Below, piece by piece: positions 8,095 through 39,878 of a stretch of DNA of 64,000 nucleotides; position 1 is the stretch's first letter; each line of letters begins with the position of its first letter. Made by a program: the position numbers and the translations under genes. The stretch lies in the NCBI GenBank assembly GCA_039810085.1, contig JBDHWG010000009.1, positions 12,609 to 76,608 of the forward strand. Reading direction: 5' to 3'. The notes under the pieces are model-generated. The model saw only the letters and a list, made by a program, of their open reading frames with translations, searched no databases and was not told where the DNA came from. Source of the DNA: Anaerolineae bacterium (lineage in GTDB: Bacteria > Chloroflexota > Anaerolineae > Epilineales > JAHCIE01).

Positions 8095-8100
8095 CACATT

Positions 8101-13545: not shown

Positions 13546-13768
13546 CAAGTTCCTCCTTGAGTATTGGCAGTCGAATACGGAACGTGTAGGACACAACGAG
13601 GTCGGCGTCCAGCTCCTCATCTGGTTGGACCACACCACGTTGTAGGTCGAATAGCAGGTTCTCAATCGCCTCCTCTCGGTCTTCTGCTTCGTTGTTGACC
13701 ACGACAACGGTCGCATCGGACCGCTTCAACTCATCCAGCATCTGTAGCGCCGTTATGGTTCGGATCAT
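13538..13768 (-). CDS. Hypothetical small acidic protein (about 76 aa, start MIRTITAL)
   Basis: 1-nt gap to upstream gene; internal start chosen over long ORF extension. Confidence 0.4.
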   Translation of the reverse strand: MIRTITALQMLDELKRSDATVVVVNNEAEDREEAIENLLFDLQRGVVQPDEELDADLVVSYTFRIRLPILKEELDE

Positions 13769-13769
13769 C

Positions 13770-14126: not shown

Positions 14127-14290
14127 GAAGAGATACCCAGAGCGCTACACCAACTGGGAAAGAAGCTATTCAGGTTCACCGCAAGGTTTCAAGGTGCAGA
14201 AATCAATGTGTGTCAGAAACGCAACAATCAGAGAGCCATCTCCCTGGTGTTACAGTCTCAAACACTCTCCAGTATATCCTGTTTCAGAAC

Positions 14291-14875
14291 TCAAAATCCC
14301 AGGCCACGCTCTTTCAGACTTGTGAAACCGCTTCGGCCAACAACAATGTGGTCGAGCAACTCCACTTCAAGGATCCGCCCGGCTTCAACTAGGGTCTTGG
14401 TCACCCGAACGTCATCTCTGCTGGGCGTCACATCGCCCGATGGGTGATTATGAACCATGATAATGGCGTGGGCGTTGTCGAGAATGGCCGGCCGAAACAC
14501 CTCAGCGGGGCGAACGGGGCTGCTATTGAGGGTGCCCTGGTACACCATCGGACAGGAGATGATCCGGTTCTTGGTGTCGAGTGTAATGACGCGGACCTGT
14601 TCTTGGTCAAGATCCTCCATCTCAACCCGAACAAATTCATAGGCATCACGGGGACTGGTGATCTGAAGTGCATCCTCCCGAGGTCGCCCGGTCTTTGCCT
14701 CATAAAGGCGTGAGGCTTCGGCGATAAACCAGCGTAGGAGGTGGACAAACTCGGCTTCATCGGGCCGCAAGAAACTCATTTGGGCTTCATGGACTCGTCG
14801 GACTCGTCGTTCTTGGGGCAGCGGCATAGTCGAGCCAGTATAGCATATGGGGTGTAGGACTGGTGTTGATATCAC
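14291..14875 (-). CDS. radC: RadC-like JAB/MPN domain protein
   Basis: 194 aa; JAMM motif HNHPSGDVTPSRDD and C-terminal LKERGLGF; start uncertain (GTG 14875 or ATG 14827). Confidence 0.8.
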   Translation of the reverse strand: MISTPVLHPICYTGSTMPLPQERRVRRVHEAQMSFLRPDEAEFVHLLRWFIAEASRLYEAKTGRPREDALQITSPRDAYEFVRVEMEDLDQEQVRVITLDTKNRIISCPMVYQGTLNSSPVRPAEVFRPAILDNAHAIIMVHNHPSGDVTPSRDDVRVTKTLVEAGRILEVELLDHIVVGRSGFTSLKERGLGF

Positions 14876-15068
14876 GAGTTAGTGCTCGGGACCTCCCCGA
14901 TGGGCGGGCCTCCACCTGACAAACGGGCAAGGCGTATCCGCGTGAGAGACGACCTTACAATCCGTTCTCGGGTGGAAGTATAGGAACTCATCTCTCATCC
15001 GGCGATTGGCGTCGTTGCTTGTGTGTTGACTACCGTCAGTCTTGGTGGAATCATACGGATGAGGTTGT

Positions 15069-15353
15069 GTGGCGAGGTCACGAGAAAAAGGGGGGGCTGT
15101 GGGGTTCGTCGCTGTGTTCGCGATCCTGCTGGTTGGTGGCTTCATTGCCAGCAGATTACACGGTCGTATCGTGGTCAGCAATCTAGCGATCTCCATCGTT
15201 TCGATTGCTCTGCTGCTGCTCGTCTACCTGATGCTCGCAAAGCTCATACTACCGGCGGTCTGGCCAAGCGCTGATGTCATCTCGACGCTGTTATTGACGA
15301 TTGTGATTGTAGGGCTCCTCTCGCGTGGTATCTTTCGGTGGCCGGGTATGTAG
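15069..15353 (+). CDS. Possible small membrane protein (94 aa, about 3 hydrophobic helices)
   Basis: Only hydrophobicity pattern; no family. Confidence 0.2.
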   Translation: MARSREKGGAVGFVAVFAILLVGGFIASRLHGRIVVSNLAISIVSIALLLLVYLMLAKLILPAVWPSADVISTLLLTIVIVGLLSRGIFRWPGM

Positions 15354-15554
15354 AGGGCGTGATTGAGGTACGTTTCTCGTGTAGCGGGTCGCCGTGTACA
15401 AGATGGTTCTGTTGCGCCAGAGCTGCCGCACTCCGCTCTCTCACTCCTCGTTAGTCGCCTATCGGCTCCCTCCTCGTCGTTCGCTCGCTCCGTTTGACCT
15501 TGGTAGGGTTGATGCAATGTATGACTAACCACGTACAGACGGGATATTGACCAT

Positions 15555-16535
15555 GTGACTTATAATGTCTGCATGACTACAGAACATGGTCGCCAAGTCT
15601 ATGACGAACAATTTAAGGACGAAACAGTACGGGCTCTCGGTGAAAGTGGAATGACACTTACTGCATTTGCTCGGGTTCGAGGGATACCACGAACAACCTT
15701 GTGGGATTGGAAACACGGAGGCATTCAGGGAGAAGAAGCTGTAGGAAGTCCAAGAAGCCTCCTATCCACTGAAGATGGGGAACGACTGCCAACTCGTCCT
15801 AAATTAGGTATATTTATTGACGACGAACCACTCAAATTTAAAAAATGGGAGAGAGTTTTTACACTGGAAGGCTTTGAAAGTCTCACTCCAGATCAAATGC
15901 TCCATGATGGCATGTCGGATACTCAAACTATTCAAGCTTTAGATCAATGGATGGATTTACTAATTCATCTTCCTGACCGAGCTCTCAAAGATGTTGAGAT
16001 TGTGGTCATCGATCAGTTCAATTTCTCTCAGTATCTACAGATGAAAGCAAAACACTTAATAAATCGACTTCGTAGCGTTAACACAATGGCATGGGTTTTG
16101 GAAACTAGTGGAGTGGTTGAGCCACATGTATATGAGGGAACAAATGCTGTTCTTGACGCGCTTGATACCACTCAGGCAATTGACCTAGTAGAAGATGCTC
16201 CATTAACTTTATCAGCTCGTATTCAAGCATTTAAAATATTTACATTGACCCCATTCCTTGAAGCACAAAAGGCCGATACAGTAAATGATGATGAAAAATA
16301 TAGTCCTTCGGAAGGATTGAACAAATTAATAAGTCACAGGAAATTCAATGAAGCACTGGCTGCTATAGGGATATCTGAGAGAGAGTTTTTTAGCATTTTA
16401 GCACTTAAGCGAGATGATGACCTGCGCCCTATTGTGCATGATTTAGGGAATCTCATGGGGCATATGATACTTGATCATGGTGATGAATATTACACAATGT
16501 CGGTAGACAAGCTGCGACGGCTTCTTCGAAGGTAA
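15555..16535 (+). CDS. Hypothetical protein with N-terminal IS3-OrfA-like HTH (HTH_Tnp_1-like) fused to an unassigned AT-rich-encoded domain
   Basis: 326 aa; YDEQFKDETVRALGESGMTLTAFARVRGIPRTTLWDWK resembles IS3/IS911 OrfA HTH; remainder of gene markedly AT-rich relative to surroundings. Confidence 0.5.
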   Translation: MTYNVCMTTEHGRQVYDEQFKDETVRALGESGMTLTAFARVRGIPRTTLWDWKHGGIQGEEAVGSPRSLLSTEDGERLPTRPKLGIFIDDEPLKFKKWERVFTLEGFESLTPDQMLHDGMSDTQTIQALDQWMDLLIHLPDRALKDVEIVVIDQFNFSQYLQMKAKHLINRLRSVNTMAWVLETSGVVEPHVYEGTNAVLDALDTTQAIDLVEDAPLTLSARIQAFKIFTLTPFLEAQKADTVNDDEKYSPSEGLNKLISHRKFNEALAAIGISEREFFSILALKRDDDLRPIVHDLGNLMGHMILDHGDEYYTMSVDKLRRLLRR

Positions 16536-16588
16536 TTCTTCTGACCAGCGCAATTCTTCTGGACGGCTCGGCAGGTCGTCATTCTGCT

Positions 16589-16987
16589 TTACCGTCGTGC
16601 CCATTGTTCCAGTGTATCTATGACACGTTTGATAGCCGAAACGCACCTTTGTGCATCGCTTACCGACACGTCACGCTCTGCGTTATGAATAATGTTGTTC
16701 CTCTTCTTGATGGCCTCAGCAACGACTTCAATATCGGTCTCATTTATACCTGCTAGTCCTTTGATCGTGCCAAGGCCAATGTTCACAAACGCGCTTAGCC
16801 CCATGTGTTCAATGAGTTTATCGAGGTGGTCCTGATTGAGCGAGGAAGCACCTGGAAGCCGGGTGATGGCCGTCGGAGCAACTTGTCGTGCAGTTGCCTC
16901 CAATGCTATGACAGCCTCTATAATCGCTATACGTCCGTTGCCTTCCTCTAGGTGGCTAATACTATTCGCTATAAGAACCTCACGCAC
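16589..16987 (-). CDS. Small HEPN-motif protein (KKRNNIIHN, Rx4H)
   Basis: 132 aa, all-helical; Rx4H motif near C-terminus as in HepT/DUF86-like HEPN toxins. Confidence 0.5.
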   Translation of the reverse strand: MREVLIANSISHLEEGNGRIAIIEAVIALEATARQVAPTAITRLPGASSLNQDHLDKLIEHMGLSAFVNIGLGTIKGLAGINETDIEVVAEAIKKRNNIIHNAERDVSVSDAQRCVSAIKRVIDTLEQWARR

Positions 16988-17101
16988 GGGAGGCTTCTTG
17001 TTACTGTCAACAAGTTGTTGAAGCTCCTGCCAGTTCGTGCTACCTAGTGGAGTCGATAACCTGGTGCCTACTTTTGCCCCTGCTCGGGAACCGATCTCGT
17101 G

Positions 17102-17644
17102 CTATTCGTGCTCGCTGTAGTAAGTCAAGCCAACATCGCCTATCCTTCTCATCGGAGGTTCAAAAACCAATGGACGCCATTTGCCATCTTCATCTAGCCA
17201 GAGTGAATGACCACAACTGTTAAATAGTTCGACGTATGGGCTTACTGGATCAACCGGGAGCGTCTCAAGCCAGTATTGTTTCAGGACGTTTCGAACGTAA
17301 CCTGCGAAGCGGTTGTAGGTTGTCGAGACAATCACCCAGACCAGCCGATAAAACTCCTTTAGCTCGTCAGTTATCTCGCCATCTCGAAGTGCTTGTATTA
17401 CTCTGGCATTTGGTGTCGGAAGATCTGTTTCGATAACGAGATCGTGCCAAAAATAGGCGGTTTGATCGGTCGGATCGTCGGTGTAGAGGATATTGCCTGA
17501 AGGCGCTCGGACAGAGAGCCAAACGGAGTATATTCCATTCTCGATGGTGAACTGCAATCGATTAGTTTCTACGAGTGGATCAGAAGGTGAGATCCACAAG
17601 GACTCCCACAGCATGAGGGATATCTTCAACTGCATGGTTGTCAC
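17102..17644 (-). CDS. Hypothetical protein (180 aa), upstream partner of small HEPN gene
   Basis: No recognisable motif (no GSx9-13DxD nucleotidyltransferase signature). Confidence 0.45.
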   Translation of the reverse strand: MTTMQLKISLMLWESLWISPSDPLVETNRLQFTIENGIYSVWLSVRAPSGNILYTDDPTDQTAYFWHDLVIETDLPTPNARVIQALRDGEITDELKEFYRLVWVIVSTTYNRFAGYVRNVLKQYWLETLPVDPVSPYVELFNSCGHSLWLDEDGKWRPLVFEPPMRRIGDVGLTYYSEHE

Positions 17645-17707
17645 CTGGCTTTAGTGAACGGAGAGCTCAAGCCGTAATTATAGCCTCGCCTCACGAATTG
17701 TCGAAGG

Positions 17708-18001
17708 TTAGGTGGTCTGATGCTGCCTCTTGAGTTCGTCTAGGCGCTCCAAAATCCACATACGAGCCAATGTGGTTGGCCCAATCCCTTTCTTTTTCGC
17801 CAGAGTGCGGAGTTCCTCCAATGTATCTGGGTCAAGCCGAACGGTCACACCGCCAGAGAGATTCTTGGCAAACCTAACATCTACGGGCTTCCATTGATGC
17901 CAGTAGTCAGTAAAGCTATGCGTATCCCAAAACGCTGCCTCTTCCTCCCTAGTTTTGAAGTCTGGGATTGGCAGTGATGTCTTCTTTGATGTATCGGTCA
18001 T
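17708..18001 (-). CDS. brnA: BrnA antitoxin (CopG/RHH-like)
   Basis: 97 aa; DPDTLEELRTLAKKKGIGPTTLARMWILERL typical of BrnA. Confidence 0.75.
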   Translation of the reverse strand: MTDTSKKTSLPIPDFKTREEEAAFWDTHSFTDYWHQWKPVDVRFAKNLSGGVTVRLDPDTLEELRTLAKKKGIGPTTLARMWILERLDELKRQHQTT

Positions 18002-18285
18002 GCTGCGTGTTCACCCCCTTTGTCTCTTTGGTAATCTCTTCTCTCTTTCTTATCTGCGGATCGAGCGGTGACGGGATAATAAACGCCCTGACCCTCTGGA
18101 TCGAGAACAACGGCAAGCATACGTCCATCGAGCGTTGGCCCAATGACCATAATGCGCCCTTTGTAGCTCTCGCGAATGATATAATCGCCCTGGCAAACAT
18201 CTTCAACGTCCTGCTGTGTGACCCCGTGCCGTGCAATATGCTCCGTGTTCCAGGTATCCCAAAGAAGGCGAGCAATGACTATCAT
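17998..18285 (-). CDS. brnT: BrnT toxin (RelE-like fold, DUF497)
   Basis: 95 aa; WDTWNTEHIARHGVTQQDVEDV...RIMVIG...RMLAVV typical BrnT; ATGA overlap with brnA. Confidence 0.75.
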   Translation of the reverse strand: MIVIARLLWDTWNTEHIARHGVTQQDVEDVCQGDYIIRESYKGRIMVIGPTLDGRMLAVVLDPEGQGVYYPVTARSADKKERRDYQRDKGGEHAA

Positions 18286-18287
18286 AC

Positions 18288-18318
18288 AACGAACGCATCA
18301 TAACATAATGCGTTCGTT
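18288..18318. promoter_or_regulatory. Inverted repeat AACGAACGCAT-N9-ATGCGTTCGTT immediately upstream of brnT start (putative operator)
   Basis: 11-bp perfect arms read in sequence, 3 nt from brnT ATG. Confidence 0.3.
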
Positions 18319-18652
18319 GAAACAAGGGGTTCGGTTGTACTCTATGTCGCCTAATGCTCATTTTACGTCATGAGGGCATAGTGGGGTTTTAGGCGTTGGG
18401 ATGAGGTTTTTTCAATTATGGAGAAGACGGGCGCAAGAGGGATGAGCCGAGTTTCAACCTATAACCGTCGGTCGAGCTGGCTCTAGGCCACAAAAAAAGA
18501 GAACTGACGACAGGAAGACTTGGGAGTAAAGAGAGCGCGTTTCGCGCAGAAGCACCAGTTGGCGCACTCTTCGTCCATTGTCGATCCTTTTTCTTGTCGT
18601 AGTTCTCTTTCTTCAGCGCTCCAAGCGCTGACCTCATTCCTCGCGGATGATT

Positions 18653-19471
18653 TTACTCGGCCGGGGTCGCGCCCGCGTTCTGATCGCGCATGTGGTTCTC
18701 AAGGATCTCCACAAGAAGGTGGACTTCAGCAGAACTGAGGAGGTACCACCACCCGGCAAGGTTGACCACTTTGGTAGCAGTCTGAGTAGTAGGCTCGTCT
18801 TCGCCCCGGAAAACGCTCATCGTCGCCCTCCTCTCATCCAGAGCCTTCCCAAGCTTCACTTGGAGGTCCGCATCCAGAAGGTACTCCTTGCCCTGGAGGG
18901 TGATCGTCACATGTGGGGGCTGAAGCGTCTCGGGGATCTCGAAGGGCTCGATGATCTCGTTCTCCCTCTCGGTCTTGAGTCTGAGCGCCCATGGCTCCCA
19001 ACTCTCCCAGAGGTCGGAGATGATCTTGTTGTCCGGGGTGCGCTTCCGCGGCAGCTTGTTCTCCTTCAGAGGTGTATCGAGGTAGGTGTGAAAGATGTCC
19101 GGTATGCGCGTCGGCGTGTACTTGTTGTTCTCGTACACGCTTTTCTCAATCAACGCGTTGATCAGCACCTGTTGGCTCGGACTGGCAGAGTCATAGATTT
19201 CGAGCATCGATGAGATCAGGTCGAAAGTGGAGGGACCGGCCTCCTCATCGGCGTTGATGCCTAGCGCCTTCTTCTCCACCAGGTCGACCTCCAGCTCATA
19301 TGAGATCACCACCTTTCCGCGCACGGTCTGCACCTCTCCCGCTTTGATTCTGCGGTTGAGCTCCTCTCTGGAGATCCCCAGGTGATTCGCCGCCTCATTC
19401 AAAGTCATGTTCTTGCTATCTACCGCCGTCATAGCCATCGCTGTCTCCTTCGGGCATTCTGCCCTTTGCAT
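18653..19471 (-). CDS. Hypothetical protein with N-terminal HTH_17/MerR-excisionase-like HTH
   Basis: 272 aa; MTLNEAANHLGISREELNRRIKAGEV; remainder unassigned. Confidence 0.5.
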   Translation of the reverse strand: MQRAECPKETAMAMTAVDSKNMTLNEAANHLGISREELNRRIKAGEVQTVRGKVVISYELEVDLVEKKALGINADEEAGPSTFDLISSMLEIYDSASPSQQVLINALIEKSVYENNKYTPTRIPDIFHTYLDTPLKENKLPRKRTPDNKIISDLWESWEPWALRLKTERENEIIEPFEIPETLQPPHVTITLQGKEYLLDADLQVKLGKALDERRATMSVFRGEDEPTTQTATKVVNLAGWWYLLSSAEVHLLVEILENHMRDQNAGATPAE

Positions 19472-19869
19472 GTTGTTACTGTCCCAAATAGAACAGCGCC
19501 CAGAGACCTCATTGTGAGATATCCAAGCGCTGTCCTATTCAGGCAAGGAGACGGTTGAACCGATTGAGTCAATTATTTGTCCGCAAAGAATTAATGTGCA
19601 TGCAAAACAGAGAAACATCTGAGACGCACTGCCTCTGTTTCTCAATCCGCAACCTCATATTATACCCTATAGTCTGATTTATGTCAATACCAACTCCCTC
19701 TCGTTCCCTACAGTCCCCCCTCTTCCTAACCACAGTCGAGGCAAAACCACCCCTATGGCCTCCACTTCCCCGCTCTCATCTTCCTGGCAGCGGCCACACT
19801 GACTGCCTGCGGCAGTCAGACCTCTTCGGCAAACCGCCGAAGGAGCACCCGGAGCCCGAAGCGCCGTAG

Positions 19870-20140
19870 CGGAGCCGTCCTGTGGCGAAGCGGTCAGCCG
19901 GAGCGAGCAAGCGACCGGCGCGAAACGAGCGGGGTACAAGCGGACGAGGCCAGGCGAGCAGTCTGACGAGGTTCGGGGAGTCAGTCTGCGAGCCGACTAG
20001 GGCCGAAGGCCGCAGCCCGCGAGTGCAGCAGAGGAAGCAGCGAGCGAAGGCCAGCGAAGCCACGAAGACCGGCGCAGTGGAGGCGCGAAGGGTCGCCGCG
20101 AAGCGAGCGAAAGCCCCGTGCTAACGGGGCTTCAGAGGGC
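19870..20140. repeat. GC-rich non-coding tract with at least 6 GCGAAG/GAGCGAA motif repeats and several hairpins
   Basis: Direct reading: GGCGAAGCGG, GCGAGCGAAGGCC, CAGCGAAGCC, GCGCGAAGGG, CGCGAAGCGAGCGAAAGCC; hairpins CTGACTGCC-TGC-GGCAGTCAG (about 19797) and GCCCCG-TGCTAA-CGGGGC (about 20115). Confidence 0.3.
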
Positions 20141-25844: not shown

Positions 25845-28640
25845 CTAACGTGTTACGTCCAGCGGACCTAGAAATACCTGGTCACCTGGAACAGCCGCGC
25901 CGTCCACCCTCACCGGCAGCCGCTCGCCCGTCGCCGCATCGTACAGACCGACTTCGATCCGGTATTGCCCCGGCGCAGCATTGCGATCCAGCGGGATGAC
26001 GTAGCGGTCGGCGATGTATTCGCCTGGCCGCCAACCTGTCGTCGGGCGGCTCCCCTCGACGGGAATGGTGTCAAGCTGGCCGACGATTTTCCCGTCTGGC
26101 CCGACGACGTGGGTAAACACCTTGAGGCTCTTGTCGAGCCGCCCCTGCGGATGCCAGTACAACGTTAGATCGACAGTGCTACCCGGCTTCACGCTCGGCT
26201 GTGCGATGTCGTAGCCGGCCAGCGTCACCCGATCCCCCAACGTCGCACTCAACGGGTGGCCGATGGGCGGCGGCTGTAGATTGACGGCCACCGGGCGCAC
26301 CGTCAGCCGCCCGATCTCCGCCGCTTCACCCTGGGGCTGACCATCCCCGCCAACAAGCGACACTACAACGGCATAGTCGCCGCCGGGCGTGTCTGCGTCA
26401 ACAAGGTAGTTATACTGGCCGAGCACCGTCTGGCCGGATTCCGAGGTCAGTGCGTATGTCTGGCTGCTGATGCTCGTGCCATCTGCGCCCACCAATGCAA
26501 TTTGCGCGTTGGCGTTGGGCTGCTTCACCTGCCAGCCCAATTCAAGGTGGACACTGTCGCCCGCGTCAACCGACGTTCGCTCCTGCCCCGCGCCGATGAG
26601 TCGCGCTGCGCCGAGGTCCTTGTCCAGGGGCCGCGACAGCTTGAGCGCGTCGGCCGACGGCGGACGGGCGGGCGCCATCACATTCAGTTCGGCAATCTTG
26701 TACTCTGTGCCGACCGGATTGCCCGACTCGTTCAGAATGTTCAGCCGCTTGAGGTCCGGGCTGTAGACGCCGACGACCACGGAGTAGCGGCCGGCCGGCG
26801 TGCCGGGGCGCACGTAGAGCCGCATCCTGTCGCTGTTCAGCTCGTTCGCCATCCAGCTTGCCGTCTGCTTGCGCACCGAGTTGGTCAACGCGCCGTCGCC
26901 CTGCCCCCAGACATTCCCCTCCGCATCGACCAGGTGGATGAAGGCAAGGTAGTTCTGGTCCAGGGGTGAGCGGTCGGGGTCAGCAGGGGCGGGCGCGCGC
27001 ACGCCGAAGCGCAGCCCCACGTCCAGGTCGCCGCCGCTGGGCACGGCGTCCGTCGACAGGCTGCCGCTGAACAGGGTGAGCTTATTGTCGAAGTTCAACT
27101 CCGGCCCCAGCGGCGGCGCATCTTTGCGGCGGTAGATTTGCAGCAGTTGCGGCCCGCGTCGGAAGACGCCCAGCGGCTTGAAGTTCTGGTCGATGTACGC
27201 CTGGAACTCCTTGAGGTCGCGCAGGAAACGCAGCTTCCCGAACTCCGACTGGTCCACCACGACGGCCCGCGCCCCGTCCGCCTCCATCTCCTGGACAAGC
27301 CTTGCGCCGGTGGTCTGCCCACTCGACGCCGCGCCCTGGGAGAGCGACGCCGCCGCATAGCCCGCCGGACGCTGCGCGAAGTAGTTCAGCCCCGCGTAAT
27401 CTGAGAGGAAGGTCGCGTCTGGCCCAACCTCGTACTTGAGGAACTCTGCCACGCGCCACGTTCCGTCCTCGCTGTAGCTCGCCACAACGTTGTCGGCGAC
27501 GCCCCACGGCAAGATGATGGCAGCGACGATGGCAGGCAGCAGAAAGCCGCGCTTCGTCCAGGCGAGCATCGGCTCCAGGCTCATGGCGAATAGCCCGACG
27601 AGCGCCGGCACGAGGTAGACCAGGTGACGCGACCATAGTTCCCGCGACAGAAAGATGAACGCGATCAGGCTTGGCAGCTGCCACGCCAGGAGCGTTCGCC
27701 GCCCGCCCTGCCGCCACGTGACGATTGCCATGGGCAGCGCGAACACCAGGAGCGACGCGTACTGCGCCCCATACGTCCAGTAGAACTCGATGCCCTTGCG
27801 GAAGACTTCCCAGCGCGAGAGCTGGCTGCCCTGCATAAGCTGGTGGCCGAAGATGGCCGTCCATGTCTCCGGTATCAGCAGGATCAGCAAGCCCATGACG
27901 CCGCCCGCTAACATTGCGGCGGGCAGCCCAATCGCAAGCGTGTCGTAGATAGCGCCTTTGAGCGTCCAGGTCGGGCGCCCGCGCCAGGCCTTCGGCCACA
28001 GGAGGTAGAGGATGACACCTCCCAGGGCCAGCACGCCGAACAGCTTCGTCAAGATAGCGAGGCCGAACAGCAGGCCGGAGAACACCAGCCAGCGGCGCGA
28101 CTTCCGCTCCTCGGCGATGACGAAGACCCACAACCCCATTGCGATGAAGAAGAGCATGTAGTCTTCGGGGCGATACACCCGGGCGACCTGGTAGACATCC
28201 GGGTGGGCAAGGAATGCGGCCAGCGCGGCCAGCGCCAGCGCCGGACTCATCAGGCGGCGGAAGACGCGATAGAAGCCCCAGCCCGCGCCGCCAATGAGCA
28301 GGGCGCTCAGAATGCGTAGCGGCGCCGGTGTCGGCCCAAAGATGTGCTCCACCAACCCGCCGATGCCGAGAAACAGGGGAAGCTGAGGCGTCAGCAGGTC
28401 GCGGTACGGCAGCTCACCCAGGCTGACGCGCCAGGCCTGGTACAGGTACAGCCCTTCGTCATCGACGATGAACCAGCCCATCATGTTGTACAGGATGGCG
28501 GCGACCGCGACAAGGATGATGACCAGCGCAGCGATATCGGCGTGGTCGATGACGAACGCCCACACGCGGCTCCAGGAGAGCGCGCCGAGAGTTGGGCGCG
28601 AGGAGCGAGAGATTGATTCGGTCCGCGACTCAGTACTCAT
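25845..28640 (-). CDS. GT-C fold membrane glycosyltransferase (PMT_2/ArnT-like) with three tandem C-terminal beta-domain repeats (paralog 1)
   Basis: N-term TM1 + DDEGLY motif, multiple TM helices; C-term repeats ...LTLYWHPQG...VFTHVVGPDG...GQYRIEVGLYDAATGERLP; start ATG 28640 chosen (longer ORF would overlap upstream gene). Confidence 0.75.
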   Translation of the reverse strand: MSTESRTESISRSSRPTLGALSWSRVWAFVIDHADIAALVIILVAVAAILYNMMGWFIVDDEGLYLYQAWRVSLGELPYRDLLTPQLPLFLGIGGLVEHIFGPTPAPLRILSALLIGGAGWGFYRVFRRLMSPALALAALAAFLAHPDVYQVARVYRPEDYMLFFIAMGLWVFVIAEERKSRRWLVFSGLLFGLAILTKLFGVLALGGVILYLLWPKAWRGRPTWTLKGAIYDTLAIGLPAAMLAGGVMGLLILLIPETWTAIFGHQLMQGSQLSRWEVFRKGIEFYWTYGAQYASLLVFALPMAIVTWRQGGRRTLLAWQLPSLIAFIFLSRELWSRHLVYLVPALVGLFAMSLEPMLAWTKRGFLLPAIVAAIILPWGVADNVVASYSEDGTWRVAEFLKYEVGPDATFLSDYAGLNYFAQRPAGYAAASLSQGAASSGQTTGARLVQEMEADGARAVVVDQSEFGKLRFLRDLKEFQAYIDQNFKPLGVFRRGPQLLQIYRRKDAPPLGPELNFDNKLTLFSGSLSTDAVPSGGDLDVGLRFGVRAPAPADPDRSPLDQNYLAFIHLVDAEGNVWGQGDGALTNSVRKQTASWMANELNSDRMRLYVRPGTPAGRYSVVVGVYSPDLKRLNILNESGNPVGTEYKIAELNVMAPARPPSADALKLSRPLDKDLGAARLIGAGQERTSVDAGDSVHLELGWQVKQPNANAQIALVGADGTSISSQTYALTSESGQTVLGQYNYLVDADTPGGDYAVVVSLVGGDGQPQGEAAEIGRLTVRPVAVNLQPPPIGHPLSATLGDRVTLAGYDIAQPSVKPGSTVDLTLYWHPQGRLDKSLKVFTHVVGPDGKIVGQLDTIPVEGSRPTTGWRPGEYIADRYVIPLDRNAAPGQYRIEVGLYDAATGERLPVRVDGAAVPGDQVFLGPLDVTR

Positions 28641-28666: not shown

Positions 28667-28703
28667 CAAGACCTGACAGGTTTTGGAAACCTGTCAGGTC
28701 TTG
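28667..28703. repeat. Perfect 37-bp palindrome CAAGACCTGACAGGTTTTGGAAACCTGTCAGGTCTTG in the 68-bp intergenic gap between two GT-C genes
   Basis: 17-bp arms read directly; core shared with 39372-39400. Confidence 0.5.
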
Positions 28704-28708
28704 CTTGC

Positions 28709-31700
28709 CTACTGAACATCCACATCCAGCAGCAGGCGATTGTCCGGCTGCGCTGCGCCCGACGTGTCCCGTATGGGAAGCCGCGCCCCAGCCGCGTCGT
28801 ACCACCCAACCGCGATTTGATACTTACCTGGCGCTGTGCCAGGCGGAACAGTGAGGGTGTAGGGGTCCACGACAACCTCGCCCGCCTGCCACCTGCTTGT
28901 CGGATAGTGGCCGAGGCCCGGCGCGCGGTCGACCTGGCTGATAATCGAGCCATCCGGCGCGAGCATATGCACGAAGACCTTATAGTCCACCGGCGTGGGC
29001 GCGTCAGCCTTCCAGTAGAGCGTCACATCCAACGGCGCGCCCGGCGTTGCCTGCACCGCATCGTAGCCGAGCAGATGCGTTGACGCGCCGATAGTCGCGC
29101 CCGCTGCGTGTTGCGGCGGTCGGGGCGGCTGCGTCAGCGCCGTCGGCCCATCTACCCACACCCGGCCTAACACGACCGGCGACGGGAGTAGCGTCGTTCC
29201 GCTCTCGTCGACGACCTGCAACTCCACCGTCGCCGGACCACGCACTGCATCCGCCGCGACCTTGGCATGGCGAATGCCGTTGAAGACGTCGCCCGGCTGC
29301 CAGGCTTCAGGCGCGAGTTGTACCGGCAACAGGCTCTGCGGTGTCTGGGCTGCCGCGCCGCGCGCGTCGCGCACGCTCAGCACGACCCGCGCACCCTTCA
29401 CCGGCCCCGTTGCCTGCCACCACAGCGGCACGTCCACGGTGTCCCCCGGCTTGACGTCCCTATCGCCCTGGAAGCCATGCCCCAGTAAACGCAGGCCCAC
29501 CAGCGTCAGGTCCGCGTCCAGCCGCGCCGGCACGTCCACCTTCGTCGGCGCAGCCCCACGAGCGACGGATACCTTGCCTAAGGTCACGCTCTCCACCGGC
29601 CCGACCGCCTCGTTGTTGTTCGGCTTTTTGAGCCGGACGCGTAGTGTATACTCGCCTGGCGGCGTCGTGGCGGGCAGTGTCAAAGGCATCAGAGTCGTGT
29701 TAGTCGTACCGAGCGCCCAGGTGGTCGCCGGACGCAGTGCGCTATCCCGCAATGGCCGCTCGGCTGTCAACACAATGCCGCCCTCGGGGTCGAGCACATC
29801 GACGGCAGCAACCAGCGGCTCGCTCACCGGCGCGTTGACGCGCCAGGCCAGGCTCACGCCCTCTGGCTTACCAGCTTGCAACGCCGCGCCGCCTGCCCCC
29901 CAGCCGCCAAGGCTCAGCGGCCCCAGGGCCGCATTGGCAGGTTGGCTCGCAGCGGGCGCCGTGCGGAAGCGCCACACTTCCACGTCGGGGAACTTCCTCG
30001 GACCGGACTCAAGTATAGCCGCTTCCCTGAGCGCGTCCAGGGCTGCGCCTGGGTCGCCTTCTGGATAGCGCAGATACCACAGGCGTTGGACGGGCGGCAG
30101 CGCCGCCAATGCCCCCGCCACATCTGACGCCTGGAAGTGGCCGAAGACCTGCGCCACGGGCATCCCCGGCGGCGTCGAGCGCGCCGCCAGCGATGCTCCG
30201 TTGACCACGAAGCCATCGCCGGGTTGCGCCGCCTGCGTGATATACGCCAGGGGGGCGGTCGCCGTCGTGTTGGTGTAGATCCAGGCGTAGTCGATGCCGT
30301 CGATGCTGACCACCTTCAGCGGCTTCTCATCCGGGTTGTCATAGTAGCGGTTCACGAGGCTCTGGTTGCGCTGGCGCTGTACTTCGTTGAGATAAAGGAC
30401 GATGTAGTCCGTCTGGTAGGGGCGAAAGCCCGGCGCGCTGCGTGTCTCGCCGACGAACAGCGGCGCGAACTGCGATACACCCCGCGCCGCCACCTGGAGG
30501 TCGTTCGCATTCGGCAGGGTGTTCAGAAACGCCGCTGCCTGGTCGTAGCCCTCACCCCACCCCACCAGCAGCCAGCGCACGGCCGCCTGCCCGCCACCGA
30601 GGAGCGGGTTGTAGTACGTCAGGTAGTAGGGCGCGTGGGAGACGGCTATCGCCGCTTCCGTCACCAACACCAGCACGACCGCCACGACAGGCAACCACCG
30701 AGCCAGGCTCAGGCTGGCCCGCGCCCGCCGCGCCGCCACCCACCCGGCCAGCCACGTGACAGCGGCGGCAAGCCCCGCGCCCGCCACGAGGTCCAGCGGC
30801 GGGAACATCGGCAGGATGTAGCGGTCGAATTTCTTCGGGCTGAAAGAAATGAGGACGGCGAAGATGAGAGCGTAGCTCGCCAACCCGACAACGGCGTAGA
30901 CGAACGGGGAGGGTGACAGAACGAGCTGGCGCAGCGATCTCCGCGCCCGATACACTGCCGTGCCGACGCCAACGACCACGATGCCCAGCCCCAGCAGCGT
31001 CCAGGGAGAGGCGCGGAAGCCGTAGGCGACGATATACATGAACGGGCCGGGGTCGTCCACAACCTCTTCGTCGAACACGTTGCCGCCCGCGTGGGGGTTA
31101 CCGCCCTCGACCGCCGCTTTGTCCGCCACGCCGCGCACCGTTCCGACCGGGTTACTCCACGCCGACGGCCAGATGAGCAGGACGGCGATCAGCCCACCGA
31201 CGGCGAACAGCAGTGTCGCTCGAATCACCCCCCGCAGCCGCCGGTCGCGCCAGCCGAGGTAGACCAGCATGAGAACGGCCCACGGCCATAGGAACACCGC
31301 CGCCACCTTCTGCACCAGGGCCGCGCCCGCGAGGGCTCCCGCTGCGATGAGCCAGCGCCACGAAGATTCCCCACCCTCGCTCAGATAGGACAGAAACGCC
31401 GAGGCGCTGAGGCGCTCAGAAGAAACGTTTTGATGTTCTTCCTCTGCGTCTCTGCGTCTCTGCGTTTCTATCCTCTTAGCGTCCTCGACTTGTGGGCGAG
31501 TCGTCAGCAGCGTGAGGACGCTCAGCACGAGCAGGCTGCTGAGCGTCGCGTCGAGGTGGAACACGCGACTGTGCGCCATCACGAACGGATCAAAGGCCAG
31601 CAGCGCCAGTCCCAACACCGCCGCGAGCGCGCCGAGCAGCCGCCGCGCCAGCCAGTAGATGGGGATGAGCAGGAGCCAGTTGAACAGGGCGGGCGCGAAG

Positions 31701-32038
31701 CGCATGCGGAACAGAAGCGCCGCCAGGCCAGCGAGCGCCTGGGCATCGACGCCGGACGGCGCGCTCGCATTCTCCGTCGCCCGGCACGTGGCGAGGACAT
31801 CGGGCGCAGCGCCGGGCGGAACGGCCAGCGTGCCCAGCCACATTGTAATGACGCCAGGGTGGCCGGTCAGAAACGTGCTGCGCGGTTGAAGCGACGCGAG
31901 CGCCTGGCCGAACGACAGCGAGCGGCACACCCAACGCAACTCGTCGGCGGCGACGAACACATCGAGGCGGCTCAGTCTTGCCATCAGCGCCGCGAGGAGG
32001 ATGACGACGGCCAGCGCGTCCAGCCAGCGACCTTTCAA
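28709..32038 (-). CDS. GT-C fold membrane glycosyltransferase (PMT_2/ArnT-like) with tandem C-terminal beta-domain repeats (paralog 2)
   Basis: 1109 aa; DEL motif after TM1, many TM helices, C-term repeats (GYDAVQATPGAPLDVTLYWKA...YKVFVHMLAPDG...GKYQIAVGWYDAAGARLP); ATGA overlap with upstream paralog. Confidence 0.75.
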   Translation of the reverse strand: MKGRWLDALAVVILLAALMARLSRLDVFVAADELRWVCRSLSFGQALASLQPRSTFLTGHPGVITMWLGTLAVPPGAAPDVLATCRATENASAPSGVDAQALAGLAALLFRMRFAPALFNWLLLIPIYWLARRLLGALAAVLGLALLAFDPFVMAHSRVFHLDATLSSLLVLSVLTLLTTRPQVEDAKRIETQRRRDAEEEHQNVSSERLSASAFLSYLSEGGESSWRWLIAAGALAGAALVQKVAAVFLWPWAVLMLVYLGWRDRRLRGVIRATLLFAVGGLIAVLLIWPSAWSNPVGTVRGVADKAAVEGGNPHAGGNVFDEEVVDDPGPFMYIVAYGFRASPWTLLGLGIVVVGVGTAVYRARRSLRQLVLSPSPFVYAVVGLASYALIFAVLISFSPKKFDRYILPMFPPLDLVAGAGLAAAVTWLAGWVAARRARASLSLARWLPVVAVVLVLVTEAAIAVSHAPYYLTYYNPLLGGGQAAVRWLLVGWGEGYDQAAAFLNTLPNANDLQVAARGVSQFAPLFVGETRSAPGFRPYQTDYIVLYLNEVQRQRNQSLVNRYYDNPDEKPLKVVSIDGIDYAWIYTNTTATAPLAYITQAAQPGDGFVVNGASLAARSTPPGMPVAQVFGHFQASDVAGALAALPPVQRLWYLRYPEGDPGAALDALREAAILESGPRKFPDVEVWRFRTAPAASQPANAALGPLSLGGWGAGGAALQAGKPEGVSLAWRVNAPVSEPLVAAVDVLDPEGGIVLTAERPLRDSALRPATTWALGTTNTTLMPLTLPATTPPGEYTLRVRLKKPNNNEAVGPVESVTLGKVSVARGAAPTKVDVPARLDADLTLVGLRLLGHGFQGDRDVKPGDTVDVPLWWQATGPVKGARVVLSVRDARGAAAQTPQSLLPVQLAPEAWQPGDVFNGIRHAKVAADAVRGPATVELQVVDESGTTLLPSPVVLGRVWVDGPTALTQPPRPPQHAAGATIGASTHLLGYDAVQATPGAPLDVTLYWKADAPTPVDYKVFVHMLAPDGSIISQVDRAPGLGHYPTSRWQAGEVVVDPYTLTVPPGTAPGKYQIAVGWYDAAGARLPIRDTSGAAQPDNRLLLDVDVQ

Positions 32039-34731
32039 GGCTTCACCGTAATGTGGCCCAGGACAGCGTGGTCGCCCTCGGTATCCGCGCCCTGAGCAAG
32101 CAGGCGCTGGAGCGTTTTGGCATCGTAGAGACCGACGCGCAAGGGGTAGCTGCCCGGCAGCGTGGACGGGTCAATCGAGATACTGCGCGACTCGATAATC
32201 GTCTCGCCCGGCTGCCACTGTGACGTGGGGCTGGCGCCGGATGCGGGCCAGCTGTCACTCTGGCCGTGAATAATGTCGTCCTCGACGTGGGCAAAAACAC
32301 TCAGGTCTGCCCCCACTTTATCCGTTGGCTGCCAGAAGAGCGTCAGGCCGAACGGCTCACCGGCTTTCACAATCGACGAGGTCAGCTCATAGCCCAACAA
32401 CCGCACCGAGCCGAGCATGGCGTCTGTGCGCATGGCGGGCGGCGCTTCCGCGAGCGCCTGGCCGATGGGGAAGGTCGGGCCGAGATATGGGTCGAAGCGC
32501 GCAGCATCCGCCAGGGTGTAGTAGCGCGGGGCAGCCACCGGGTCCCGGCTGTAGATGCGCAGCTTGGGCGCGCCGTCGGCATCCACGTCCGCCAACAGGT
32601 GATACTCCTTCTCGATGCGGTTGAGCGGAATTTTCACCGCGTCCTGCACATCCTGGGCAACGATGTAGTAGCGCGGGTTGGCGGCGGAGCGCACCGCTCC
32701 GCGCGTGTACCAGCCCGTGACCAGCGGCTCCTCGTTGCTGTCGTAGTCGCCCTGGAGCGTGCCGTCGGCGAAAAGCGAGCCGACGATGCTCCAGCCCGCC
32801 TGGTACGGGAAGCCGAAGTAGCCGCTACTCGGGGGACGATCACCATAGACGGCGGGGTACAACGGGCTGCGCGCCGCGGGATAGATGCGTTTATACTCTG
32901 GGCTGTGGCTCACGAACGCTATCCAGATGTAGCCGCCGAGCAACAAAACGAGTAGCCCGCCGACAGCCATGAGGGCAAAGCGCGCCGAGCGCCCGAATCG
33001 CGCCTGGACACCTTGCGCCAGTGCCGCCACGCCAAGGCCCGCGAGAAGCGCCGCGCCGGGCATCATGGTGTAGAAATGGGTGGTCGGCTTCTGCGTCAAG
33101 AAGCTCGCCACCAGGAACGGCCCCAGGAACCACAGGAGTGTCGCCTTCACGCCGTCGTCGAGGCGCGGCGCCAGCGCCCACAGCAAGAGCGGCAGAAAGA
33201 GAAATAGCGAGAGGTTGTACTTGCCAACGCGCAACGCTTCCGGCGCGGCGGCAGCGACCGCCAGGGCCAGCACAGGCCAGGCCAGGGCAAGCCACCGCCC
33301 GTGGCGGAAGCCACGCCAGCCGAGCCAGGCAAACACCGCGACGAGCGCCACGGCGAGCAGGACAATGTACCACGTCGAGTTGTAGAATGTCGCGCGCAGG
33401 AAGTAGTCGGCCAGCTTGTTATACAGCGGCCCACCAGCCGCCGCCGCATTGCCGACGCCGACGCGGCGGTTGATGATATAGTCAACTGTCTCACGGAAGT
33501 GGGGGTGCAGCGCGAACGGCGCGTAGAAGAAGGCCGCAATGGCCGCACATACCGCCGTCGGCGCCATCAGCCCACGCAGCCCACCCCGCCGCCACAGCAG
33601 GTACGCCACCGGCGGGATGGCGAAGACGGCCTCGTAGTGGCCCAGGCTCCCCGCCGCGACGAGCGCCCCTGCGACGACAGCCCACCGCATTCGCCCGCCC
33701 TGGTAGTAGCGCCACGCCGCCCATACCGCGACAATCGATGTGAGCGCGACGATGCTCTGGTACTGCACGATGCGGCCAAACGCCACAAAGTAGCCATCCA
33801 GCGCCAGGATCAGCGCAGCGACCAGCCCCTCACCCCCTAGCCCCCTCTCCCAAAATGGGAGAGGGGGAACAAGAGGGGCGTTCTGGCTCCCCTTCCCCGC
33901 TTGTGGGGGAAGGGGCTGCAAGAGCATGTCATCGCGAGCAGAGCGAAGCGATCCCTCACCGGGAGATTGCTTCGCTGACGCTCGCAATGACACATCAGGG
34001 CCTGACGAGAACAGCCGCCAGCCGAGCGCGCCGATGCCAAATACAGCGGCGACGTTCATCAGGGCGAAGGGCAACCGCGCCGAGGACTCGTCGATGCCAT
34101 CCGTCGCCGCCCAGACGAGCGCCGGCATGAGCACCTCGCCCGGCGCTTTCTTGTGGAAGAACAGGATTTCGCTGCGTCCCTGCCCCAACCCCGCCGCCAT
34201 CAGCATGGCGCGCGCCTCGTCGCCCTGGAACTCGGAGTAGCTCAGGAACGTCAGGCGGAAGACCAGGGCCAGGGCGACCGGGACCGCCAGCCACCACAGA
34301 GCGCGCACGCGAACAATTGCCGGACGCGCGGCGGTCGTTCCGAGGGCCAGCCAGCCCGCCAGAACGAGCAGCGCGCCGTCGAAAGCAAGTAGCACCGGGG
34401 CGCGGGTCATGGGCGTCGGCAGGTAAGCGACCGCGAGGCTCAAGACCAGAGCGCCCGCTACCGCTAGCGCCGCATCGAGGGCGAGGCGCTCCGGCCACGC
34501 GACGCTTTCGCCAGCCATCAACCGCTCGGCGACAAGCACACCGGGCAGAGCAAACAGAACGATGGCAGCCGTAGCGCGGACGAACAAGGGAACGGGGAGG
34601 AAGAGGAGGAGGTTCGCAACCAGCGCGACAGCAAGCGCAACCAGGGCAAACCATGCCCAAGGCCGCGCGGCGAGGCGTGTCGCGGGAGAAGCGGGGCCGG
34701 CGCCGGCCATCGGGAGACCCGAATCGGCCAT
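32035..34731 (-). CDS. GT-C fold membrane glycosyltransferase (paralog 3) carrying an approximately 57-aa low-complexity in-frame insertion
   Basis: 898 aa; GDE motif, TM-rich N-half, C-term LGYELTSSIVKAGEPFGLTLFWQP...VFAHVEDD...GSYPLRVGLYD repeat. Confidence 0.75.
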   Translation of the reverse strand: MADSGLPMAGAGPASPATRLAARPWAWFALVALAVALVANLLLFLPVPLFVRATAAIVLFALPGVLVAERLMAGESVAWPERLALDAALAVAGALVLSLAVAYLPTPMTRAPVLLAFDGALLVLAGWLALGTTAARPAIVRVRALWWLAVPVALALVFRLTFLSYSEFQGDEARAMLMAAGLGQGRSEILFFHKKAPGEVLMPALVWAATDGIDESSARLPFALMNVAAVFGIGALGWRLFSSGPDVSLRASAKQSPGEGSLRSARDDMLLQPLPPQAGKGSQNAPLVPPLPFWERGLGGEGLVAALILALDGYFVAFGRIVQYQSIVALTSIVAVWAAWRYYQGGRMRWAVVAGALVAAGSLGHYEAVFAIPPVAYLLWRRGGLRGLMAPTAVCAAIAAFFYAPFALHPHFRETVDYIINRRVGVGNAAAAGGPLYNKLADYFLRATFYNSTWYIVLLAVALVAVFAWLGWRGFRHGRWLALAWPVLALAVAAAAPEALRVGKYNLSLFLFLPLLLWALAPRLDDGVKATLLWFLGPFLVASFLTQKPTTHFYTMMPGAALLAGLGVAALAQGVQARFGRSARFALMAVGGLLVLLLGGYIWIAFVSHSPEYKRIYPAARSPLYPAVYGDRPPSSGYFGFPYQAGWSIVGSLFADGTLQGDYDSNEEPLVTGWYTRGAVRSAANPRYYIVAQDVQDAVKIPLNRIEKEYHLLADVDADGAPKLRIYSRDPVAAPRYYTLADAARFDPYLGPTFPIGQALAEAPPAMRTDAMLGSVRLLGYELTSSIVKAGEPFGLTLFWQPTDKVGADLSVFAHVEDDIIHGQSDSWPASGASPTSQWQPGETIIESRSISIDPSTLPGSYPLRVGLYDAKTLQRLLAQGADTEGDHAVLGHITVKP
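33826..33995. repeat. Composite palindromic element inside GT-C paralog 3 CDS: G-rich hairpins (33841-33867, 33889-33915) plus a 64-bp imperfect palindrome (33928-33991)
   Basis: CCCCCTCTCCCA-AAA-TGGGAGAGGGGG; CCCCTTCCCC-GCTTGT-GGGGGAAGGGG; GTCATCGCGAGC...GCTCGCAATGAC also seen at 50548-50610 and 59213-59249. Confidence 0.5.
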
Positions 34732-37826: not shown

Positions 37827-39878
37827 CTAGGGGTGAGGGACCGGCGTCGCCAACTGCACGTAATCGCCTTCGACGCGCTGCCCGTCCACTGTGACCGGCA
37901 GCCGCGCGCCGCTCGCCAGGTCATACATGCCTACCTGGAGCCATAGCTCGCTCGGCGCGTCAGGCGGGAGGGTGATGGAGCGTTCGTCGACGATAATCTG
38001 CCCTGGGTCCCAGGTCGAGGCTGGCGAGACGCCATGCTCGGGCTGGCCGTCGCTCTGCCCGTAGCCCTTGCCACTCGCATCCACCAGGTGCGCGAACACC
38101 GTGTAGTCGATGTCTTGCCCCGCAATGGCGCGCGAGTAGAGCGTGAGGTTAACCTTCTTGCCGTCGGTCGCCAGGGCATAGCCGAGCAGGTCGGCGGCAT
38201 CGCCGAGACGGGCACTCTGCGGGTGCTGAATCTCGGCCGGGTCGAAGCGGCGATAGAGAACGCGGTCCTTCTCGCGCATCGCCGGCACGTAGCGCGCCTT
38301 GATCCAGGCCATGTAACCGTCGAGGCGGTCCAGCCGTCCGTTCCAGAGGACGATGGCGGGCGGATTATACTTAGCCACCGTTGCGATGGCTTCCTCGTTG
38401 GTGAGCTGCCCGGTCTCGATGCGCTTGGAACTTTGCGCCGCAAGCCACGGAATCTGCGTGCGACCGGCGCGAAAAGCAATCATGGGCGGGTCGGCGACGA
38501 TGATGTCCGTCGGCGTCGTGTGCGTCTTGACCCAGTCGGCCGCCGCCAGGAGCGAGCGGTACGGGCCAGGGTCAATCAGATCGCCCAGGTCGGACGCCTG
38601 CCCCGGCGCACGCACCGCGATGAGCGCCAGGGCCGCCAGGGTAACGGCGACCGACACCGCGCCCGATTGACGCGGCGCACGCAGGCTGTCCCATACCCCG
38701 GCGACACCGACAGCGGCCAGAGCGACCAGGGGAAAAAGGAACAGCATGAAGTGATGCTTGGCGAACAGCGGGCGCTGATTGACCAGGACAAGCGCCGTGA
38801 GCGCCAGCCAGCCGAGCATGACCAGGCCGGCATAGCTCCGCCGCCGCAAGAGCGTCCACGCGCCGACAACCGCGAGCGCCGTCACGCCCAGGTTCTCGAC
38901 GGTCATGTACTCCAGAAGCCACTGGGCATACTCCGGCGTCCGGTTAGGCCAAACGTCTCGCGCGGCGAGAGGTGTTGCAAGCGCCTGCGCCATGAAGCCG
39001 CGTACATCGAAAAACAGGAGAAAGGGCGCCCCCACGAGAAGTAGGCCGACGGCCAGGGCAGCCATGCCGCGCCCCGCCTCGCGTACGCGGTTCGGCGCGC
39101 GCCAGACGCCGGGTAGGGCAAAGGCGGCGAGCGGCGCGCTGTAGAGCGCGGCGGTCAGCTTGAGCCACAGCCCCCCGCTGAGGAACACACCCGCCAGGAA
39201 CAGCCAACGCGCCCGTCCCGTATGACCATAGATCAATGCCAGAGCTACCGCCAGCGTTGCCAGACTGACAGAGGGAATGTCGTGGCTGACGGAGCGCGCC
39301 AGCCAGAAGAAATTGGGCGCGAGCGCCATAAGCAGAGGCGCGGCGACAGCGGCGATACCCGGGTTGAGCAGACCTGACAGGTTTTGAAAACCTGTCAGGT
39401 ATGTGCCGGTAATGCGATCCCGCCGCGCCGAGACGCAGATGCCGGCGGCGAGACTCGCGACGGCGGCCAGGCCGAGCAGCCCATACAGAAGAACGACGAG
39501 CCGCCCGCTCTCGACACTCTCACCGAAGACGCGGAAGCCAGCCAACAGCGACAGGGGAACGCCCGGCGGCTGGTCCAGCCAGATGTCGCTGTACAGCCGA
39601 TACCCCTGTCCCATGAGCTGCGCCTGCACAAGCTGGATGCCCTCGTCCGCGTCCCACTGCGTCGCCGACAGCCAGCGCGAGTAGACAAGCCCGACGACGA
39701 CAACCACAAGCGCAACGCCAATTACCGCCACTACCGTCGCCAGCCCCCATTGTACAAGTGGCTTATTGAATTCTTTCGTCTGGACCTCGGTAGCCAGCTT
39801 CTCTCTCCCTACCCCGCCGTTTTTCCTCTGTGTCCTCTGTGACATCTCTCCGTTCACAACGGCTTCAATGGTACGCAA
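37827..39878 (-). CDS. GT-C fold membrane glycosyltransferase (PMT_2/ArnT-like, paralog 4) with one C-terminal beta-domain
   Basis: 683 aa; WDADEGIQL motif after TM1; C-term NLTLYSRAIAGQDIDYTVFAHLVDASG...WLQVGMYDLASGARLP. Confidence 0.75.
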   Translation of the reverse strand: MRTIEAVVNGEMSQRTQRKNGGVGREKLATEVQTKEFNKPLVQWGLATVVAVIGVALVVVVVGLVYSRWLSATQWDADEGIQLVQAQLMGQGYRLYSDIWLDQPPGVPLSLLAGFRVFGESVESGRLVVLLYGLLGLAAVASLAAGICVSARRDRITGTYLTGFQNLSGLLNPGIAAVAAPLLMALAPNFFWLARSVSHDIPSVSLATLAVALALIYGHTGRARWLFLAGVFLSGGLWLKLTAALYSAPLAAFALPGVWRAPNRVREAGRGMAALAVGLLLVGAPFLLFFDVRGFMAQALATPLAARDVWPNRTPEYAQWLLEYMTVENLGVTALAVVGAWTLLRRRSYAGLVMLGWLALTALVLVNQRPLFAKHHFMLFLFPLVALAAVGVAGVWDSLRAPRQSGAVSVAVTLAALALIAVRAPGQASDLGDLIDPGPYRSLLAAADWVKTHTTPTDIIVADPPMIAFRAGRTQIPWLAAQSSKRIETGQLTNEEAIATVAKYNPPAIVLWNGRLDRLDGYMAWIKARYVPAMREKDRVLYRRFDPAEIQHPQSARLGDAADLLGYALATDGKKVNLTLYSRAIAGQDIDYTVFAHLVDASGKGYGQSDGQPEHGVSPASTWDPGQIIVDERSITLPPDAPSELWLQVGMYDLASGARLPVTVDGQRVEGDYVQLATPVPHP
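39372..39400. repeat. Perfect 29-bp palindrome ACCTGACAGGTTTT-G-AAAACCTGTCAGGT embedded in-frame in GT-C paralog 4 (encodes TGFQNLSGL)
   Basis: 14-bp arms read directly; same core as 28667-28703. Confidence 0.5.

Follow-up and report, generated by a model that had tools for sequence, protein, structure and literature searches.

What is a perfect palindrome doing in the middle of a membrane glycosyltransferase gene? In the 64,000-nucleotide stretch of Anaerolineae DNA analysed here (the window), the 29-bp palindrome ACCTGACAGGTTTTGAAAACCTGTCAGGT occupies positions 39372-39400 within a minus-strand open reading frame (ORF; 37827-39878) for a glycosyltransferase of the GT-C type, and a near-copy lies between two paralogous GT-C genes at 28671-28699. 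A sequence-only reading of this DNA had offered two answers: an internal regulatory or attenuation site, or a small, mobile palindrome that a protein loop tolerates. Our results favour the second, as the element is absent from paralogs and from orthologs of ∼50% identity, is dispersed among unrelated genomes, is linked to RayT transposases and falls in an inter-helix loop modelled with low confidence. We conclude, with a probability of about 80%, that the palindrome is a passenger repetitive extragenic palindrome (REP) of a RayT-linked family, tolerated in a permissive loop of the GT-C gene.

The palindrome has two 14-nt arms that are perfectly complementary around a central G. As had been proposed, it begins about 160 codons into a 683-aa ORF, where the minus-strand codons CTG ACA GGT TTT CAA AAC CTG TCA GGT CTG encode LTGFQNLSGL (residues 161-170). 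An approximate-match search of the window with up to 3 mismatches returned only this site and 28671-28699, and 100 dinucleotide-preserving shuffles gave 0 matches at the same threshold. The two copies had been called identical, which is nearly so: they agree at 28 of 29 bases, the intergenic copy having TTTTGGAAA in place of TTTTGAAAA and a stem that extends to 17 bp (28667-28703). Both copies are predicted to fold stably on either strand (-24 to -30 kcal/mol; z-scores -5.5 to -6.7), with -24 kcal/mol and z = -5.9 for the intragenic stem. Each half-site (ACCTGWCAGGT) is itself palindromic. When the window was screened for lone half-sites and degenerate copies with at most 1 mismatch, only the 4 half-sites of the two known copies were recovered. 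An Rfam scan of the whole window at gathering thresholds gave no match at either palindrome.

The host ORF is a genuine coding sequence. It encodes a GT-C (PMT_2/GT39-like) membrane glycosyltransferase with a C-terminal beta-rich domain, as judged from its Pfam PMT_2 match, its orthologs and an AlphaFold2 model. The ORF gives 683 aa from a TTG, and the database copy (P0001) begins at an ATG 11 codons later (672 aa). When 16 homologues were aligned with the host protein, invariant residues were found on both sides of the palindrome, and the N-terminus upstream of it, including the WDxDEG motif (WDADEGI in the host), was conserved in 16/16. The nearest named relatives of the window are from Anaerolineae (Chloroflexota).

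Comparison with these homologues showed that the palindrome-encoded peptide is an insertion relative to the paralogs, which lack it; in those at 25845-28640 and 28709-32038, the loop at the palindrome position is short. Orthologs P0005-P0011 (∼50% identity) lack ∼20 residues there. Closer orthologs gave a divided picture, with the palindrome present in one and absent from two. P0002 (locus L120, 83% identity) carries it at the same codons with nearly identical nucleotides: it differs by a single synonymous stem change (GGT to GGC), the outer stem is intact, and the outer-stem codon is GAC where the window has TAC. P0003 and P0004 (loci L121 and L122, 77-79% identity) keep the same gene order and have unrelated residues at that position, with no hairpin folding signal in their loops (z = 0.15 and 0.37) and no occurrence of CCTGWCAGG in the 44 kb that the two loci total. 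The contrary pattern, in which all homologues would encode the peptide from divergent DNA, was looked for and is not what these sequences contain. A metagenome scan for further orthologs of the host protein found none.

The intergenic copy differs among the same four genomes. It lies between the stop codon of the minus-strand GT-C ORF at 28709-32038 and the probable ATG of the next GT-C gene (∼28640). From the stop codon to AATGAGC, the window and L120 have 67 nt that include the hairpin, as against CCAG or CAAG alone in L121 and L122. The difference amounts to 63 nt, the empty site (TAG-CAAG-AATG) is clean, and the intergenic copy looks, from these alignments, like a plain insertion or deletion.

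The same hairpin is widely dispersed. One genome per species was scanned for exact matches to CCTGACAGGTTTNNNAAACCTGTCAGG, which gave at least 119 genome stretches; by their record titles, ∼51 are from Bacteroidota, 33 from Chloroflexota, 31 from Gammaproteobacteria, 3 from Rhodothermales/Balneolaceae and 1 from Betaproteobacteria. The listed Chloroflexota carriers include Anaerolineae, Caldilineae, Ardenticatenaceae and others, and the listed Gammaproteobacteria are mostly of Beggiatoa, Thioploca or Marithrix types. Several assemblies are represented by many contigs among the matches listed, for example at least 7 contigs of the metagenome-assembled genome CSMAG_1672.

Across 128 copies of the hairpin from elsewhere, flanking pairs 1, 2 and 3 were Watson-Crick in 97%, 92% and 91%, and pair 2 covaried (GC 71, AT 35, CG 8, TA 4). 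Pairs 4-6 matched at chance (23-34%) and sequence farther out was not conserved. Because pairing is lost beyond the third flank pair, the natural unit is 33 nt, with the consensus A-R-A-CCTGACAGGTTT-NNN-AAACCTGTCAGG-T-Y-T, which forms a 15-bp stem and a 3-nt loop. The flanks of the 128 copies are inverted complements and not direct repeats, and no target-site duplication was found. In the window, the intergenic unit (28669-28701) reads AGA-CCTGACAGGTTT-TGG-AAACCTGTCAGG-TCT. The intragenic unit (39370-39402) is in frame on the minus strand as (Y)LTGFQNLSGL; its core, CCTGACAGGTTT-TGA-AAACCTGTCAGG, spans 39373-39399, and its outer stem has flank pairs 1 and 3 intact and 1 mismatch at pair 2 (AGA...TAT, not AGA...TCT). 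Half-sites with longer spacers occur at loci L061, L135 and L211.

One of the three reading phases of the unit contains a TGA stop; the other two read (D/N)LTGFxNLSGL and RPDRFxKPVRS. All copies found in Pfam-supported genes use the (D/N)LTGFxNLSGL phase. These hosts are a type ISP restriction enzyme (L084), MurD (L069), an amidohydrolase (L052), a TMEM260-like GT-C protein (L107), a polyketide synthase/non-ribosomal peptide synthetase with two copies (L091) and RayT genes. The identical sequence in unrelated genes means that the hairpin is not specific to the GT-C gene.

Some further occurrences of the hairpin are recorded here for completeness. In Beggiatoa-like Gammaproteobacteria it stands within longer conserved flanks, e.g. 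TAACTTCCAAAAC.TTTGAGCCAAA-REP-TTTAGTTTCGTGTATTATTCAATTC (L010 3627, L038 6156 and L093 3828; also L045 5953, L071 4345 and L086 6846), an arrangement that suggests larger composite repeat units in these genomes. A phage origin is unlikely, as only 6 viral contigs carry the hairpin; one of them (L127, an IMG/VR contig) has 4 copies, at 4839, 12951, 13002 and 13053, three of which are in tandem with 51-bp spacing. A full-text literature search for the hairpin sequence gave only unrelated primer-type matches.

What could have dispersed such a unit? When the 1,388 ORFs lying up to 2 kb from hairpins were compared all against all, a RayT-like protein was the sole neighbour to recur, leaving aside Flavobacterium genes in local synteny. 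A RayT-like ORF (motifs YHIYNRG, MPNHFHLLV, FSNLFNAYTKAFN and YIHNNP) was present in 10 of the at least 119 listed loci, and it adjoined or overlapped the hairpin in 9 of these 10. Hairpin copies stand on both sides of the gene at L004, L065, L074 and L109, and the hairpin is in frame within it at L001, L003, L066, L074, L109, L135, L211 and L212. The RayT-like proteins are 190-215 aa long, with NHFH and YIHNNP or YIHQNP motifs. They matched the NCBIfam model REP_Tyr_transpos below its curated cut-off (E 1e-14 to 2e-19) and Pfam Y1_Tnp weakly; the sole match to a solved structure was E. coli TnpAREP (4ER8, E 4.8e-9). Relatives number in the thousands, many of them labelled 'REP element-mobilizing transposase RayT' by JGI.

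All 10 RayT loci of this first set were from Bacteroidota or Balneolaceae, and the link was therefore sought in GC-rich genomes. A first RayT homology search had given Flavobacterium-type matches only and was uninformative for Chloroflexota. A metagenome scan with a RayT profile then found a contig of 67% GC (L135) with the hairpin upstream of, inside and downstream of RayT. Homology search with this protein returned named matches from Chloroflexota only (Anaerolineae, Thermoflexales and 'Chloroflexota bacterium'), and in 4/4 of the corresponding contigs (L210 and L211, Anaerolineae; L212, Thermoflexales; L213, Chloroflexota) the exact hairpin stood directly beside the RayT gene, and also in frame inside it in L211 and L212. 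With L135, the hairpin is thus beside or inside the gene in 5/5 GC-rich RayT loci examined. L211 alone holds 7 REP copies in 5.6 kb, including half-site pairs 82 nt apart. As the nearest named relatives of the window are from Anaerolineae, the link between REP and RayT is present in the class that matters here. The 24-nt core of the REP is kept across phyla although the transposases are only ∼50% identical. As a separate observation, three of the Chloroflexota RayT genes are located in defence loci: that of L211 (2501-3115) between the type I restriction-modification genes hsdM and hsdS, that of L212 (2501-3103) directly after hsdS, and that of L213 (2501-3073) just downstream of cas1-cas2.

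These proteins can be compared with described REP systems. According to Quentin et al. 2018 (PMC6006769), TnpAREP subclass 2.4, equivalent to RAYT group 4, is characterised by NH[IFV]H and YIxNNP motifs and a length of ∼194 aa, and is found in Cyanobacteria, Bacteroidetes and various phyla; Bertels et al. 2017 (PMC5581495) report group 4 to be frequent in Caldilineae. The present family resembles this subclass in its dispersed short hairpin, its NHFH and YIHNNP/YIHQNP motifs, its transposase size and its host range. It differs in that the conserved 'WQ' position reads PF(K/N/Q/G)R, in that the hairpin has no GT[AG]G foot, and in a 24-nt core that is constant across phyla, of which we found no description in the literature. 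By motifs and length, we provisionally assign the associated transposase to subclass 2.4/RAYT group 4. The E. coli REP/BIME (bacterial interspersed mosaic element) system has a homologous transposase and a hairpin substrate, which is putative for our system. The E. coli repeats are imperfect, carry the GTAG tag, lie outside genes and do not extend beyond their lineage, whereas the REP described here has a perfect 15-bp stem and a 3-nt loop and occurs across phyla.

Residence within genes is also known. REPs have been documented within the coding regions of many unrelated genes by Di Nocera et al. 2013 (PMC3733652), who recall the Rickettsia palindromic elements (RPEs). In-frame copies have been described from RayT genes of subclass 2.4 as well as from others (PMC6006769, PMC3733652). 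The likeness to intragenic REPs and RPEs lies in palindromes that are in frame, in hosts that are apparently functional and in a short peptide placed, as a rule, in loops or linkers of varied proteins. Most described REPs are marked by a GT[AG]G or CGTC tag (PMC3733652), and the present family is neither GTAG- nor CGTC-tagged. The long RPE-1 type is a longer palindromic insertion (PMC3733652) than our 33-nt unit, and the hosts in our case are Chloroflexota, Bacteroidota and Beggiatoa-like bacteria.

The position of the palindrome in the protein helps to explain how the gene could accommodate it. In the AlphaFold2 model of the host (mean pLDDT, the per-residue confidence score, 79.8), residues 152-166 form a coil between helices 122-151 and 167-186, and within the chain pLDDT falls below 50 at residues 162-165 only. 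The Pfam PMT_2 match is interrupted exactly at the palindrome and resumes at residue 175 (profile position 50). Other palindromic repeats occupy the equivalent loop of related proteins. The minus-strand 898-aa GT-C paralog at 32035-34731 has 3 other in-frame inverted repeats there, at 33841-33867 (CCCCCTCTCCCA/TGGGAGAGGGGG), 33889-33915 (CCCCTTCCCC/GGGGAAGGGG) and 33942-33976 (AGCGAAGCGATC/GATTGCTTCGCT), which encode ...VSLRASAKQSPGEGSLRSARDDM...PLPPQAGKG...PPLPFWERGLGGEG... and just precede the point at which its PMT_2 match resumes (profile position 51). Ortholog P0014 (L123 2339-4357, ∼47% identical) carries a ∼45-aa insert in the same inter-helix loop, made of the inverted repeats CCCTCTCCC/GGGAGAGGG and CCCTCACCC/GGGTGAGGG, which belong to a different palindromic repeat family. 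One GT-C inter-helix loop therefore repeatedly gathers different palindromic repeats and, as modelled, appears to be a short, length-variable and insertion-tolerant segment between two transmembrane helices. Two further GT-C proteins are noted alongside. In an uncultured Anaerolineales (L107 5453-5479), an independent REP insertion in the same phase (DLTGFRNLSGL) lies between two hydrophobic segments of the TMEM260-like protein (Pfam E 4.9e-34). The 1109-aa paralog at 28709-32038 (minus strand) has a charged insert, QVEDAKRIETQRRRDAEEEHQNVSSERLSASAFLSYLSEGGESS, at residues ∼180-225, the place at which its PMT_2 match ends (profile position 91).

We propose that a RayT/TnpAREP-like HUH tyrosine (Y1) transposase recognises the hairpin on single-stranded DNA, cutting and rejoining it and so scattering copies through the genome, and that one copy ended up in the GT-C coding sequence. 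The reading frame would have been kept because 33 nt is exactly 11 codons. The copy would survive in the gene because it uses a phase without a stop, which adds the small flexible peptide (D)LTGFxNLSGL, and because the site is a short, length-variable, insertion-tolerant inter-helix loop. The gene would then remain functional, with the hairpin a passenger, probably neutral for the enzyme, and no regulator of it.

Several observations weigh against a passenger REP. No RayT gene was found in the 64-kb window, which holds only two copies of the REP, and the GT[AG]G or CGTC tag was absent from either hairpin end in the 128 copies. The loops of L121 and L122 are exactly as long as that of the window, yet have no hairpin, a combination that a simple 33-nt insertion on the branch of the window and L120 does not explain well. 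Finally, between the window and L120, third codon positions are identical at 0.60 gene-wide and A/T-ending codons are kept at 0.19, whereas the A/T-ending codons of the hairpin are kept in 5/6 cases against this 19% (P ∼ 0.001). Since the hairpin nucleotides are kept better than synonymous sites, the copy may be not purely neutral.

The equal loop lengths bear on when the copy arrived. The same length in all four genomes implies either that a REP of their common ancestor decayed in one lineage and was maintained in the other, or that the REP replaced a stretch of equal length. What identity to the REP is left in the loops of L121 and L122 (13-15/33 nt, hand count from the alignment) is too weak to choose between the two. 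It is conceivable, although on balance unlikely, that the hairpin was present before the four genomes split and has been actively maintained, almost unchanged in two lineages, through selection or RayT-driven correction from other copies, or that a replacement-type event overwrote a loop of equal length. By hand count over 60 nt of loop, the window and L120 are ∼90% identical (80% gene-wide), and L121 and L122 ∼53% (82% gene-wide); under maintenance, the same loop would have drifted to ∼50% identity in the latter two lineages. In L120, both copies have started to decay through structure-breaking changes, with C·A, T·C and A·G mismatches and no wobbles. If either were true, then, taken with a 24-nt core that is identical in three phyla despite transposases of only ∼50% identity, it would point to a REP-RayT recognition code that is unusually rigid and shared horizontally, and to a mechanism of homogenisation as yet undescribed for REPs.

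Selection could also act on the RNA, the hairpin being a cis-regulatory element of the operon that serves as an mRNA pause or attenuation, stability or processing site. The very stable intragenic stem and its conservation between the window and L120 above the synonymous background would fit such a role, and REPs elsewhere are reported to influence mRNA stability and translation (cited in PMC6006769, PMC3733652). We nevertheless consider it improbable. At neither copy did scans for terminators and promoters give anything tied to the hairpins: there was no terminator-like match, no U-tract and no T-run after the stem on either strand. L121 and L122 have the same gene order without any hairpin, the identical sequence is in frame in unrelated genes and phyla, and the L120 changes give mismatches instead of wobbles that would preserve the structure. 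The first answer of the sequence-only reading, an internal site of regulation or attenuation, is therefore not supported.

The unit might instead be an operator bound by a dimeric protein, or a miniature inverted-repeat transposon mobilised by a classical DDE transposase, and not a REP that depends on RayT. The self-palindromic half-sites, their occurrence with longer spacers and the missing canonical GTAG tag of REPs would suit either, but the flanks are inverted complements with no direct target-site duplications, no DDE transposase or regulator gene recurs beside the copies, and the only recurrent neighbour gene is the RayT-like Y1 transposase, which copies bracket or occupy in 15 loci of two phyla. 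We regard this explanation as distinctly improbable. Miniature inverted-repeat transposable elements have terminal inverted repeats and direct target-site duplications and are usually 70-300 bp long. The present unit is not one of them, at 33 nt and with flanks that are complementary rather than directly repeated.

That LTGFQNLSGL is an ancestral GT-C protein motif, the palindrome being a by-product of its coding, can practically be dismissed: the closest ortholog, P0002, does encode the same peptide, but it does so with almost the same nucleotides, among them codons that are uncommon in a genome of 65% GC. The residues are missing from paralogs and ∼50% orthologs and are unrelated in P0003 and P0004, and the same DNA also occurs in an intergenic position of the window and at hundreds of unrelated sites.

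Two other features of the window deserve mention. Positions 1-20000 have ∼50% GC compared with ∼65% for 20-64 kb, and their large ORFs match DNA methylase (N6_N4_Mtase), McrBC and AAA ATPase families, a pattern suggestive of a defence-type island gained by horizontal transfer, or else of a chimeric contig. An S-adenosylmethionine (SAM) riboswitch (RF00162; 58907-59047, minus strand; 85.8 bits) was the only Rfam match in the window.

As in-frame REPs are already known, the present locus is in itself ordinary; the identical core in three phyla, the recurrent use of a GT-C loop and the better-than-synonymous conservation may be of specialist interest. For annotation, the locus is a REP insertion in an intact GT-C gene and calls for no frameshift, pseudogene or regulatory site, and in modelling the enzyme the 11 extra residues should be disregarded. 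The locus adds a well-documented in-frame REP from Anaerolineae, its presence and absence traced among orthologs. More broadly, one REP sequence is common to the RayT systems of Bacteroidota, Chloroflexota and Beggiatoa-like bacteria, and this sharing across phyla bears on the debate over whether REP-RayT inheritance is strictly vertical or not.

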